Virus record (IMG/VR): IMGVR_UViG_3300020202_000062
Location: 1 to 64,000 of that record
Length of the DNA stretch: 64,000 nt
Direction: 5' to 3' (one strand)
Source: a virus
The notes beneath the pieces are model-generated. The model made no database searches, was not told where the DNA came from, and saw nothing but the letters and a program-made list of their open reading frames with translations. The position numbers were made by a program, and so were the translations under genes. Positions 39,710 to 45,858 of this stretch are shown here, one piece after another (positions within the stretch are counted from its first letter, which is position 1; the number at the start of each line of letters is the position of its first letter).

Positions 39710-40057
39710 GTGAATAATATAGTAGAATTAAAGGACACTCTTAGAGAGTGTCTTTCTTTTTGCCCGGACGACTACAGGGGTCCTGTATCCTTACATTCGA
39801 AGCCCGATGGTGCGAGTCTGTTTATCGTTTGGAATGGCGCATACTTTCCCACTATGAACCTACGCAGGGGTGTCTGTGGCTGGATTAGATCATATGATCT
39901 CTCCAATAATATCTGGAATCTCATCGGTCTCTATGACGAGAAGACTGGCCTTGTCAAGTGGACGGATAGCCAAGGTTATGTATATGGTTCTGTAGACGCA
40001 TTCCACAACATGGTATTCGGTAAGGGTAGACTGTCATGCAAGAGGAAAGTAAGTTAG
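39710..40057 (+). CDS. hypothetical protein (ends CKRKVS)
   Basis: GTG start after the tRNA. Confidence 0.6.
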   Translation: MNNIVELKDTLRECLSFCPDDYRGPVSLHSKPDGASLFIVWNGAYFPTMNLRRGVCGWIRSYDLSNNIWNLIGLYDEKTGLVKWTDSQGYVYGSVDAFHNMVFGKGRLSCKRKVS

Positions 40058-40731
40058 TTAAGTATCCTCGTACCATGCACCTACCGTGGTCTCCTGGCTT
40101 ACAAAACGATGACAGAGTGATAGAAGATCTGTCAGTCCTAGAATCTTGTGACGATGTAGTAGTCACAGAGAAGATGGATGGAGAGAATACTACTCTCTAT
40201 TGCGATACGGCTCATGCTAGGTCTTTGACGAGCGGCCCGCATCCATCTCGCGCCAAAGTCAAAGAACTCTGGCAAAGTCTCCGTTGGGATATTCCCCCAG
40301 GTATGCGTATCTGTGGTGAGAATATGTACGCAAAGCATTCAATCTATTATGACAGCCTCAGATCCTACTTCCTCGTCTTCAATATCTGGCTCGGAGATGT
40401 ATGTCTCTCCTGGGAAGATACAATTCTCTGGTGTGGACTTCTCGGACTCGATACAGTCCCTGTCCTATACCGTGGCAAATGGAACGAATCAGTCTGGTCC
40501 GATCCATATCATGCCGAGCGGTGGATTCGTCAAGGGCGAGATGATCATGACGGTGGCTCCGAGCGGGAAGGATTTGTTGTCCGACTGGCTGAAGAAATAC
40601 GGCTTGACGACTTCGGAAGAAGTGTGGCCAAGTATGTACGCAAAGGTCACGTACAAACAGACGAACACTGGATGTCGCAGGAAATCACGCCAAATAAACT
40701 AAGTGCGAACGTAGATAAAGATATCTACTAA
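40036..40731 (+). CDS. RNA ligase (ATP-dependent, Rnl2-like family)
   Basis: KYPRT.HLPWS, TEKMDGEN, GEN.YA.HSI.Y, EG.VVR, KYVR. Confidence 0.9.
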   Translation: MQEESKLVKYPRTMHLPWSPGLQNDDRVIEDLSVLESCDDVVVTEKMDGENTTLYCDTAHARSLTSGPHPSRAKVKELWQSLRWDIPPGMRICGENMYAKHSIYYDSLRSYFLVFNIWLGDVCLSWEDTILWCGLLGLDTVPVLYRGKWNESVWSDPYHAERWIRQGRDDHDGGSEREGFVVRLAEEIRLDDFGRSVAKYVRKGHVQTDEHWMSQEITPNKLSANVDKDIY

Positions 40732-41604: not shown

Positions 41605-41679
41605 GCGGGTGTATCTCGGCGGTTAGAGCAACTGAATTTTAATCAGTTGGTCGGGGGTTCAAATCCCTTACGTATCGCG
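41605..41679 (+). pseudogene. degenerate tRNA-Lys(TTT)
   Basis: Good anticodon and T arms; mispaired acceptor stem. Confidence 0.55.
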
Positions 41680-41809
41680 CGAGGTGGCTTATGTTTATGA
41701 GAAACTTACGAATGTGGTTTTATGAAACTCTCATAGTTTGGGCATTCAAGAAACTTGGCTCTGATCAGTACATAAACTACAAAGAAAAAGTAAAGATCAC
41801 TAAAATCTA

Positions 41810-41885
41810 GCACGTGTAGCTCAGTGGCTAGAGCAGACGGCTCTTAACCGTAAGGTCGCGGGTTCGAATCCCTCCACGTGTACCA
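41810..41885 (+). tRNA. tRNA-Lys(CTT)
   Basis: CTCTTAA loop; ACCA. Confidence 0.92.
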
Positions 41886-41901
41886 AAAGAACAGGAAAAC
41901 C

Positions 41902-42420
41902 ATGTCGCAACTATACGATCCCACAAGAATCGACCTGAAATTAGATCCGTTCGAGATGCGGATGACAGGTACAGCAAGGCACGGAATGGTGCCCTTCGAT
42001 GTACCTTACATCTCAGAGATCGCAGACAATCTATTCCAGGGCGGATGTGCTAACGATCTACTACTGCCTGAGAACATCAAGCATGTAGTGTCGCTGTACA
42101 AATGGGAAGCATATTCCTGCGAACATGAGTTAGATTCTGTAACTGTCGTTACTATGTACGATTCAACGTCCACACCAATCAATAGAGATCAGGTTGTGGC
42201 ACTGGCAAACTGGGTGAATGTCTGTCGTAAGACTGGACCTACCTTAGTTCATTGTCAGGCTGGTTTGAATAGGTCTTCTTTGGTCGCGGCGCTTGCCCTG
42301 ATCTTGGGGGATGGTTTGACTCCTGAGGAAGCAATTGCTACCCTCAAGGAGAGGAGATCACCTGCTTGCTTATGCAATCATGTGTTCACTGAATGGCTAC
42401 TTGAAGAGAAGTATAAGTAG
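41902..42420 (+). CDS. dual-specificity/tyrosine protein phosphatase
   Basis: LVHCQAGLNRS (HCx5R). Confidence 0.9.
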   Translation: MSQLYDPTRIDLKLDPFEMRMTGTARHGMVPFDVPYISEIADNLFQGGCANDLLLPENIKHVVSLYKWEAYSCEHELDSVTVVTMYDSTSTPINRDQVVALANWVNVCRKTGPTLVHCQAGLNRSSLVAALALILGDGLTPEEAIATLKERRSPACLCNHVFTEWLLEEKYK

Positions 42421-42427
42421 TCAACAC

Positions 42428-42501
42428 GGGCTTGTAGTTCCAATTGGCAGAACAGCTCCTTTGCACGGAGAAGGTTGGGGGTTCGAATCCCCCCTGGTCC
42501 A
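42428..42501 (+). tRNA. tRNA-Ala(TGC)
   Basis: TTTGCAC loop; G3:U70. Confidence 0.92.
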
Positions 42502-42565
42502 CGGGGTAGTAGTCGATGAAAGCAGAGCGTACGGCTGCATGAGGTTGCTATACCCAGTATTTCTT

Positions 42566-42621
42566 GGGCTAGTCGCATTGGTAAATACTAGTTGTTGCGG
42601 GTTCGAATCCCGTCTAGTCCA
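42566..42621 (+). ncRNA. anticodon-less tRNA-Ala-like RNA
   Basis: GGGCTAG/CTAGTCC-A (G3:U70); T arm GCGGG-TTCGAAT-CCCGT; only 24 nt between. Confidence 0.65.
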
Positions 42622-42622
42622 C

Positions 42623-42772
42623 TGTGGTGCCTTTAGGTTGGAGTCACACAAGATTAACCGAAGCACAATTGCATGGTAAAGTGACCTGTAAATCATGCAG
42701 CCACACAATACGGGTCGATAAAGTTGCGGCTGAGATCGACAGTTGGCGGAGTCCGCAAAACTCACGGTCAAC
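42623..42772 (+). ncRNA. candidate structured RNA with two kissing-loop modules
   Basis: Hairpin loops GTCAC/GTGAC and TTGCGG/CCGCAA are complementary. Confidence 0.55.
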
Positions 42773-42777
42773 AACAT

Positions 42778-42849
42778 GGTCTATTCGTCTAGTGGTTAAG
42801 ACGCCAGATTCTCAATCTGGAAACGGGGTTTCGACTACCCCATAGACTG
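42778..42849 (+). tRNA. tRNA-Glu(CTC)
   Basis: CCAGA-TTCTCAA-TCTGG. Confidence 0.92.
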
Positions 42850-42852
42850 CTT

Positions 42853-42963
42853 ATGGAAGAATATGAATGCGATCAAGAATGTGCCGTCCACTTTGATGGG
42901 TGTGACGGCTTTTGTGATCATCTCGACGGTCACGTAAACGGATGCTGGAGAAAAAGTGACTAA
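42853..42963 (+). CDS. 36-aa Cys/His-rich peptide
   Basis: ATG 4 nt after the tRNA discriminator. Confidence 0.45.
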   Translation: MEEYECDQECAVHFDGCDGFCDHLDGHVNGCWRKSD

Positions 42964-43106
42964 GGGTACTGGCAACAAGACAGAGATGTCGATAAACTGG
43001 GACTACTCAGAAAAAGCAAAGCGATGCCCAAAGGCATACAAGATCGTGAAGGGTCAATACCTTCGCGGTGGCCGCGGGGTAAAGAACATCTTCGGAAAGT
43101 AATACA

Positions 43107-43895
43107 ATGCGAATCATGATGGCAGGCGACACACATAGCAACTTTGAGCAGTGGGAGTACCTATTCCCCATCGCTAAGGACCTTAACGTTGATGTCATCA
43201 TGCAACTCGGAGACTTTGGATACTGGGCGCACACCAAGGGTGGACTTAACCACCTTGATGCTCTACACGATCTTGCTGTAGAGTACGATATCCCAATCTA
43301 CTGGCTGGATGGCAACCACGAGAACCATGTGCACCTACGGGTGAACAGGATCGCAGTATGGAATATGTTCTGTCTTATGGCAGGCGTAGATCCTGGGCCA
43401 TTCGTCCCGATCCGCGGCACGCATATTGTGCACACGCCGCGGGGTGCAACCTGGGAGTGGGACGGCGTTAAGTTCCTAGCAGTTGGCGGTGCGTTCAGTA
43501 TCGACAGAGGCTGGAGAGATGTTGGGGAGTCCTTCTGGTTTGAAGAGGAACTCACTGACGCTGAAGCAGACTATGCTTCTAGAGTTGGGAAGGTCGATGT
43601 GCTGGTGTCACACGACGTTCCGATGGGCACGGATATGGCGTACATGTTCATCCGACAGGGTAGGTCGTACAGACCTATTCCGCAGGCTGAACCTAACCGC
43701 CGACGCTTGAGGCAGGTGGTCGAGGCCACGAAGCCTAACTACATATACCATGGCCATTACCATATCTGCTATAAGAACTACCTCGAACTTAATAGCGGAC
43801 ACACCATTGTCGTCATGGGCCTCGGTGCTGATGGGATGGAACAGGATTCCTGGACTATTCTTGACACTGAGGACTTGACAAATCCGGTTGGATAG
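43107..43895 (+). CDS. calcineurin-like metallophosphoesterase
   Basis: GDTH, GDFG, DGNHE, SHD, HGHYH. Confidence 0.92.
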   Translation: MRIMMAGDTHSNFEQWEYLFPIAKDLNVDVIMQLGDFGYWAHTKGGLNHLDALHDLAVEYDIPIYWLDGNHENHVHLRVNRIAVWNMFCLMAGVDPGPFVPIRGTHIVHTPRGATWEWDGVKFLAVGGAFSIDRGWRDVGESFWFEEELTDAEADYASRVGKVDVLVSHDVPMGTDMAYMFIRQGRSYRPIPQAEPNRRRLRQVVEATKPNYIYHGHYHICYKNYLELNSGHTIVVMGLGADGMEQDSWTILDTEDLTNPVG

Positions 43896-44662: not shown

Positions 44663-44762
44663 GCCCCGGTAGCTTAACGGTAAAGCAGCGGATAAAGAGA
44701 CTCAGTATCTCACGGTTTGGGTCTCTCCGTCGATGGTGGTTCGAATCCACCCTGGGGCACCA
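44663..44762 (+). ncRNA. tRNA-like RNA with a long hairpin replacing the anticodon loop
   Basis: Intact acceptor, D and T arms and ACCA; insert GAGACTCAG/TTGGGTCTC. Confidence 0.75.
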
Positions 44763-44832: not shown

Positions 44833-44939
44833 GCCCCGATAGCTTAGTGGGAAAGCCTCTTTCTGGATCCTGTGAGGCTAGCAGGGAAAGGTTAGAGTAG
44901 CGCGCAAACACGGAGGTTCGATTCCTCCTCGGGGTACCA
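44833..44939 (+). ncRNA. tRNA-like RNA with expanded anticodon/variable region
   Basis: GCCCCGA/TCGGGGT-ACCA; D and T arms intact; ~45-nt insert. Confidence 0.75.
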
Positions 44940-45597: not shown

Positions 45598-45669
45598 GCT
45601 TCGGTAGTTCAATGGTAGAACAGCGCCCTCTAAAAGCGTATGTTGAGGGTTCGAATCCCTTCCGAGGCG
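45598..45669 (+). tRNA. amber suppressor tRNA (CTA), tRNA-Gln-like body
   Basis: Loop CT-CTA-AA with anticodon at 45630-45632; D arm identical to tRNA-Gln(CTG) at 5283; G73. Confidence 0.85.
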
Positions 45670-45674
45670 CTCAA

Positions 45675-45858
45675 GATCACGTAGCTCAGGTGGATAGAGC
45701 AGCGCAAAAACGGAGGCGTGGTATCTAGAGAAGGTTTGCGGATGCACCGGGACCGGGCCGCATGCAGTAATGTATGTGGTTGGGGAACCTTAGCCCCCGG
45801 CAGGGAAGCGCGTTATCCTAACTCTAGCGTTGCGGAGGTTCGAGTCCTCCCGTGATCA
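45675..45858 (+). ncRNA. tRNA-like RNA with ~120-nt structured insert in the anticodon arm
   Basis: GATCACG/CGTGATC-A; GCTC/GAGC D arm; GGAGG-TTCGAGT-CCTCC T arm. Confidence 0.75.

Follow-up and report, generated by a model that had tools for sequence, protein, structure and literature searches.

The window analysed here (64,000 nt) comprises positions 1-64,000 of the virus record IMGVR_UViG_3300020202_000062, which totals 158,928 bp and is an estimated 75% complete. The phage DNA comes from soil metagenomes and has a GC content of 48%. ARAGORN and Rfam identify 26 tRNA genes and one tmRNA gene in the window, every one on the plus strand, and between 30 and 50 kb all called tRNAs and long ORFs are plus-strand. 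By blastn against phage records, the tRNAs and some unannotated stretches are similar to large Streptomyces and Mycobacterium phages. Large tRNA-rich phages contain many unannotated stretches between their tRNA genes and, to our knowledge, the function of such spacers is almost uncharted apart from the RNAC and RNAD species of phage T4.

The interval studied, 42623-42772, makes up the 3′ two-thirds of a 275-nt spacer that runs from tRNA-Ala to tRNA-Glu without a credible gene. The flanking genes are listed below, the three protein genes lying among the tRNA genes.

40036-40731: RNA ligase gene (PF09414)
41878-42420: dual-specificity phosphatase gene (PF00782)
42428-42502, plus strand: tRNA-Ala(UGC), called by ARAGORN, Rfam tRNA 51.6 bits; upstream boundary of the spacer
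42778-42850, plus strand: tRNA-Glu(CUC), called by ARAGORN, Rfam 62.1 bits; begins 5 nt past hairpin 2b
43107-43895: calcineurin-like phosphoesterase gene (PF00149)

With its RNA ligase, phosphatase and phosphoesterase genes, the surroundings of the spacer are an RNA-repair neighbourhood. No terminator was found in the spacer. Three ORFs that reach into it, at 42624-42845 (+), 42335-42679 (+) and 42421-42777 (-), were considered as coding sequences and rejected. All three overlap tRNA genes, and minus-strand ORFs of equal size are also found within real genes nearby. Furthermore, the indels of a relative phage described below amount to a net +4 nt, which shifts the overlapping frames and breaks both of the long ORFs that cross the region. 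Coding constraint is absent from the interval, and a check for its translation was negative.

The window holds further tRNA-related features. The phage tmRNA (11218-11595, 83.7 bits, tag ADENLLVAA) lies in the first tRNA cluster. Three Rfam tRNA matches have no ARAGORN call: a partial one at 41612-41669 (32 bits, model positions 8-63) in the spacer between tRNA-Asp and tRNA-Lys, and two over-long tRNA-shaped elements at 44663-44759 and 44833-44936 (97 and 104 nt; Rfam 55.7 and 43.2 bits). A partial YrlA-like match of 30.5 bits at 45637-45706 overlaps the 3′ half of a tRNA with a CUA anticodon. Directly downstream, positions 45692-45817 match unannotated DNA of Gilsonvirus phages of Streptomyces (among them Forrest, Jada and Gilson) at 82% identity.

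Motifs, chance expectation and folding of the 5′ part

A sequence-only reading of this DNA had described the interval as two tandem kissing-loop RNA modules. All of the motifs that it named occur where it placed them, as read directly from the sequence, and they are arranged as follows.

42623-42705, plus strand: module 1 as drawn in that reading, with closing stem TGTGG (42623-42627) / CCACA (42701-42705), hairpins H1 and H2, and the proposed loops GTCAC (42643-42647) and GTGAC (42681-42685); fold z -0.34
42714-42740, plus strand: hairpin 2a of module 2, with a 6-bp outer stem GTCGAT (42714-42719) / ATCGAC (42735-42740), an internal loop, a 2-bp inner stem (A42722-U42731 and G42723-C42730) and the apical loop TTGCGG (42724-42729; UUGCGG as RNA) in the MFE fold
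42742-42772, plus strand: hairpin 2b of module 2, with stem GTTGGC (42742-42747) / GTCAAC (42767-42772) and, in the MFE fold, 11 pairs including the G-U pair G42746-U42768, two bulges and a 7-nt apical loop CCGCAAA, of which CCGCAA (42753-42758) complements UUGCGG of 2a

It had also been argued that two independent loop-loop matches within 150 nt are unlikely by chance. Shuffled sequences and genome tiles contradict this claim. The MFE of 42623-42777 (155 nt) is -39.1 kcal/mol compared with -38.2 +/- 3.8 kcal/mol in dinucleotide shuffles (z -0.24), and complementary words in the region are about as frequent as expected (13 5-mers versus 10.7 +/- 3.6, and 3 6-mers versus 2.6). A module was defined by script as a pair of neighbouring hairpins that have 4-bp stems and loops complementary to each other over 5 nt; on this definition, two disjoint modules were present in 124 of 1000 shuffles (12.4%) and in 68 of 426 genome tiles of 150 nt (16%). 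Pairs of hairpins of the module 2 type, having two 6-bp stems and a 6-nt loop match, were present in 13 of 1000 shuffles (1.3%) and 8 of 426 tiles (1.9%), and about eight such tiles are expected per 64-kb window. Judged by its sequence only, the region as a whole does not exceed chance, and this is a caution for any loop-loop complementarity of 5-6 nt that is spotted by eye in 150 nt. Ordinary nested helices formed by TTGCGG/CCGCAA or GTCAC/GTGAC were also considered and discarded, their ensemble probability being 0.

These values favor the weightiest of the rival explanations, that the spacer is a non-functional filler of decayed tRNA remnants in which hairpins and loop matches arise by chance. 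The truncated tRNA-like element that adjoins the interval, the resemblance of 42627-42650 to the 5′ part of a tRNA with deletions, and the lack of a homologue in the phage, viral, metagenome and genome collections searched all point the same way. For module 1 alone, neutrality is the best reading and a somewhat probable one. For the spacer as a whole we consider it unlikely, in light of the comparative evidence presented below.

The three-way junction with kissing loops that had been proposed for module 1 is not supported, as a stronger alternative fold exists and the homology of the relative stops inside the module. The closing stem has an ensemble probability of ~0.1 in the isolated fragment; folding the entire spacer lowers this to 0 and puts hairpin H2 at 0 too. 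Both drop to 0 because GGCUGCAUGA pairs perfectly with UCAUGCAGCC. The proposed GTCAC loop is a loop only in part, as its GUC is paired in the MFE fold. The features of the alternative fold are given here.

42533-42558, plus strand: 5′ strand of a predicted long-range helix (spacer MFE), in which GGCUGCAUGA pairs with 42693-42702
42566-42621, plus strand: tRNA-like element, truncated, in which a 7-bp acceptor stem and canonical T arm are present and the anticodon and D arms are missing
42627-42666, plus strand: hairpin H1, an irregular 40-nt stem-loop found both in the module 1 fold and in the long-range fold (MFE)
42672-42702, plus strand: 3′ strand of the predicted long-range helix, overlapping the proposed GTGAC loop, the 3′ strand of H2 and part of CCACA

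The core of the long-range helix is a perfect 10-bp inverted repeat, GGCTGCATGA at 42533-42542 and TCATGCAGCC at 42693-42702. Extensions of 7 bp and 4 bp bring the helix to a predicted ~21 bp with a pair probability of ~1.0, and it is predicted to enclose the tRNA-like element together with hairpin H1. For boundaries that were picked after the fold was seen, the 177-nt unit 42530-42706 has a fold z of -2.98, and swapping the tRNA-like element for a tetraloop gives a z of -3.5. A perfect 10-bp complement is found in 2% of shuffles and in 4% of 275-nt genome tiles. The duplex ranks 24th among 6370 tiles (top 0.4%), and ~15-20 other loci in the window have long-range duplexes that are equally strong. 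We regard the predicted duplex as notable, not unique, and module 1 as probably a chance reading of a stretch that folds differently.

The tRNA-like element scores 25.9 bits with the Rfam tRNA model, below the gathering score of 29, and has a fold z of -2.33. Its acceptor features include G3:U70 and A73, which we take to be the alanine identity set. The same positions, 42566-42621, also give a weak mascRNA-like alignment.

A relative phage and the twin hairpins beside tRNA-Glu

Contigs from three soil runs aligned on 41800-43300 formed the comparative sample, in which only one relative was informative. Run X2 contains the window's own phage, with no contig covering the spacer. This phage, from run X3 (a different study and a different year), is ~90% identical to the window in the phosphatase gene, with 24 of 245 nt differing. 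Codon position 3 accounts for 14 of the 17 differences listed for that gene, and arithmetic from these differences gives a third-position divergence of ~24%, about a quarter. One X3 contig (514 nt, depth 6.6) aligns over 42688-42815 with 4 substitutions and 8 gap letters, and the sequence of the relative was rebuilt by script from the aligned edits. The alignment defines one further feature.

42688-42777, plus strand: conserved block, aligned to the ~90%-identical X3 phage

In the relative, both hairpins of module 2 are still the MFE fold. The outer stem of 2a changes from GUCGAU/AUCGAC to GUCAUC/GAUGAC, with three consecutive pairs altered on both sides, and the inner pair A42722-U42731 is replaced by G-C. 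Between the two sequences, four pairs of hairpin 2a are changed on both sides and none is broken. All 25 tested pairs are formed in both phages, and the four double-sided changes compare with 0 when the pairing partners are slid. In a shuffle control, which is weak and involves two sequences only, 50 of 500 reach the observed value. Hairpin 2a has ~12 edits in the relative, all of them outside the loop UUGCGG, which is identical in the two phages. Hairpin 2b differs at a single position, A42764G, located in a bulge; its stem is near-invariant, which is consistent with pairing, and its CCGCAA loop sequence is identical as well. Two adjacent hairpins are predicted in both sequences, with compensatory pairs for 2a, and their apical loops are complementary and conserved between the two.

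The fold z is -1.71 for module 2 and -1.97 for hairpin 2a. A UUGCGG/CCGCAA duplex has a calculated energy of -7.6 kcal/mol, and all six of the loop-loop pairs are invariant, leaving no covariation between the two sequences. A 6-bp loop-loop (kissing) helix in module 2 is plausible and consistent with the invariance of both loops. The invariant loops could also be kept for another partner. A second UUGCGG complementary to the 2b loop is located at 42595-42600, in the tRNA-like element.

Outside hairpin 2a, the flanks of the block (42688-42716 and 42738-42777) contain 2 differences in 69 nt. The binomial probability of so few is ~0.03 if the divergence is the gene average of 10%, and ~1e-6 if it is that of third positions. 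A neutral spacer is at odds with this count, given the divergence at codon third positions, and it is equally at odds with a relative that retains hairpin 2a through four double-sided changes and retains both loops.

Similarity to the relative begins abruptly at 42688, inside module 1, and ends at 42815, just past the anticodon of tRNA-Glu. The relative is unaligned over 42510-42687, and another X3 contig departs from the window at 42509, immediately past tRNA-Ala. Because the relative diverges both after tRNA-Ala and after the tRNA-Glu anticodon, the tRNA region is strongly mosaic. The block 42688-42815 may itself be a mosaic segment, since its similarity breaks off abruptly at both ends, and the high identity of the flanks could come in part from recent exchange and not from selection. 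Recent exchange would not explain a hairpin 2a that is hyper-variable yet fully compensated inside the same block. In the X3 relative, the stretch from the phosphatase gene's end to tRNA-Ala is also longer by ~157 nt (window 42418-42428).

A plus-strand RNA is indicated by the G-U pair of hairpin 2b and by the better fold of the plus strand (-18.4 versus -15.7 for the minus strand, and -60.4 versus -48.7). These same two observations weigh against the third-ranked rival, which places the function in the DNA or in a bound protein: the conserved block would be a promoter or operator for tRNA-Glu and the downstream genes, or a protein-binding site, with the inverted repeats as half-sites. Such an element would account for the conservation of 42688-42716 and hairpin 2b without covariation, and TTGCGG and CCGCAA do form an inverted repeat 23 nt apart. 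On the other hand, a sequence-specific site would be lost if three stem pairs were swapped. Additionally, no sigma-70-like promoter was found in the spacer, and the motifs of the conserved block do not recur beyond chance elsewhere in the 159-kb genome. We consider a DNA-level element quite improbable.

Based on the compensatory changes in the stem, the invariant complementary loops and the strong conservation of the flanks, module 2 is most likely a real, selected plus-strand RNA structure in the pre-tRNA-Glu leader. The earlier proposal of an unrecognised structured non-coding RNA survives for 42688-42777, where compensation within module 2, invariant loops and conservation all argue for it, and is not supported for module 1. 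The oligomerising form that it also suggested is likewise unsupported. The interval is not a set of two autonomous kissing-loop modules; what it contains is a modest candidate structured RNA.

Searches for homologues and known RNA families

No known Rfam family matches 42623-42772. In a permissive scan of the interval with Rfam 15, nothing scored better than E 6 and the sole match was fiv_FSE at 11 bits. A scan of the whole window at gathering scores returned tRNAs and the tmRNA only, with no GOLLD, ROOL, riboswitch or small ribozyme. The interval contains no tRNA according to ARAGORN (with relaxed thresholds and in the intron and mitochondrial modes) or the covariance model.

The negative Rfam results also bear on the last of the rivals, in which the interval is a self-cleaving ribozyme acting to trim the adjacent tRNA or tRNA-like RNA and the loop matches are parts of a nested pseudoknot. 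The location is suitable, directly 3′ of the tRNA-like element and 5′ of a tRNA, and complementarities of the pseudoknot type are present. Nevertheless, no hammerhead, twister, pistol, hatchet or HDV-family model in Rfam matches even at E <= 10, and manual threading onto an HDV-like fold gave candidates for P1, P3 and P4 with no partner for P2. We view a ribozyme as very improbable.

At the nucleotide level, when the spacer and the DNA around it were compared by blastn with 50,697 phage records, only tRNAs and T arms were matched. Exact and gapped DNA patterns run against viral, metagenome and genome contig collections gave chance hits without similarity in the flanks. A covariance model of module 2 was also run on the phage genome, the distant relative G001 and four Streptomyces phages, and it located no further copy; its best hit, at 16.7 bits and E 0.02, was judged to be noise. 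Searches through the neighbouring proteins found no syntenic relatives. The best non-self hit of the metallophosphoesterase is 53% identical, and the contigs bearing these hits are without the spacer. The phosphatase search yielded 66 loci, all at <=62% identity, and the partial phosphatase of the X3 relative found no match at >=90%. Judged by these searches, the spacer region is a nearly orphan candidate structured RNA. Among distant relatives of the phosphoesterase, the adjoining genes include RtcB, RlaP, CCA-adding enzyme and Rnl1-type ligase genes.

Proposed role and comparison with known RNAs

The best reading, which we hold with middling confidence, is that the spacer acts as a structured leader or spacer domain of a polycistronic tRNA transcript. 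The spacer would be co-transcribed with the plus-strand tRNA genes of the phage, and its last 90 nt (42688-42777) would carry the selected structure, consisting of the adjacent hairpins 2a (42714-42740) and 2b (42742-42772). The twin hairpin stops 5 nt short of the tRNA-Glu RNase P site, and its apical loops UUGCGG and CCGCAA may pair as a 6-bp intramolecular helix. We infer that such a structure would let the adjacent tRNA and tRNA-like units fold without interfering with one another and would mark processing sites, and that it probably persists as a processed by-product RNA in the manner of T4 RNAC and RNAD. The 5′ part is more likely composed of hairpin H1 and the 3′ strand of the long-range helix, which together with 42533-42558 would clamp the truncated tRNA-like element at 42566-42621.

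Precedent for such by-products comes from T4, whose tRNA region gives rise to two small RNAs without a known role (PMC3014915). RNAC and RNAD (species 1 and 2) are small non-tRNA RNAs located among the phage tRNA genes on the tRNA strand, and they are presumably freed by the tRNA-processing enzymes (PMC3014915). The spacer described here likewise belongs to a phage tRNA cluster and would be read from the plus strand, so the two cases are alike in setting. In contrast to the present element, RNAC and RNAD are not described as twin kissing hairpins; the host group also differs, and the stable RNA is putative here.

A kissing interaction between adjacent hairpins has parallels in the 3′ UTRs of picornaviruses (enterovirus, Senecavirus), where two hairpins within ~60-70 nt have apical loops that are complementary over ~6 nt (PMC5870040, PMC9189406). 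These domains show that an intramolecular kissing model can apply to hairpins that lie side by side. They are, however, replication elements of eukaryotic RNA viruses with no homology to the phage spacer, and kissing in module 2 is a possibility suggested by its sequence.

We give a small chance to a bolder version of the same evidence, in which module 2 is the core of a new small phage RNA that acts in trans, or the 3′ domain of a tRNA-mimic scaffold formed with 42530-42706. The RNA would then be a twin hairpin locked by kissing, with a variable 'specificity' stem in 2a and invariant loops, released from the operon by RNase P. It might serve in trans as, for example, a guide or decoy for an enzyme of tRNA processing or repair.

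A spacer element with compensatory stems and invariant complementary loops would offer a small, tractable model of ~60-90 nt. It could be used to address the folding and processing of phage tRNA operons, as well as the question of whether spacer RNAs lead independent lives.

GOLLD and ROOL are non-coding RNAs that tend to lie near phage tRNA genes, and the sequence-only reading had drawn an analogy with them. The analogy is one of position only, as neither Rfam model matches anywhere in the window. GOLLD and ROOL also have defined Rfam models and extend over several hundred nt, compared with ~60-90 nt for the supported element here.

YrlA (Rfam RF02553; PMC4201824) resembles the predicted fold of the spacer in its architecture, namely a tRNA-like module on a long stem built from distant strands, and Y RNAs occur in large actinophages that are rich in tRNA and RNA-repair genes. 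This leads to the second-ranked rival, in which 42530-42706 is one RNA with a long stem and a tRNA-like domain, module 2 is an appended 3′ domain, and the whole docks a Ro60-type or RNA-repair protein. The predicted long interrupted stem does enclose the tRNA-like element and H1, RNA ligase and phosphoesterase genes do flank the spacer, and Rfam YrlA aligns weakly over 42566-42706. Furthermore, the YrlA-like RNA of BE-cluster phages, located beside a Ro-like gene, shares its T arm and ~17 nt downstream with the window. The scores are nonetheless low. The YrlA alignment reaches 14.7 bits (E 2.2) against a gathering score of 69 (RF02553), and a model of the BE-phage RNA gives the spacer 14.4 bits (E 0.14) with many pairs broken, a score that ordinary tRNA junctions elsewhere in the window also reach. 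No TROVE/Ro60 gene (PF05731) is found on the 158,928-bp contig, which is an estimated 75% complete. The tRNA-like element is unpermuted, with normal acceptor topology, and is without a D arm, and the X3 relative is unaligned over 42510-42687. A tRNA mimic of the Y RNA kind is unlikely in our judgement. The spacer may function a little like a stem-borne tRNA-like module, but it is not a demonstrable member of YrlA.

In the databases, the spacer is most similar (80% over 46 nt) to an unannotated gap in Streptomyces phage Moab, which lies ~700 nt upstream of a gene for a 'Ro-like RNA binding protein'. The RNA of the Streptomyces BE-cluster phages combines a long stem with a permuted domain resembling T arm, acceptor and D arm, has 13 covarying pairs and gives a partial YrlA match of 30 bits. 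It is probably a phage Y RNA like those that Chen et al. described (PMC4201824). In Moab, an unannotated RNA of ~165 nt occupies 70541-70704, and the gap is conserved in 33 Streptomyces phage records. Some Streptomyces phage records annotate part of the Y-like RNA, inconsistently, as tRNA-Ser, tRNA-His or tRNA-Arg.
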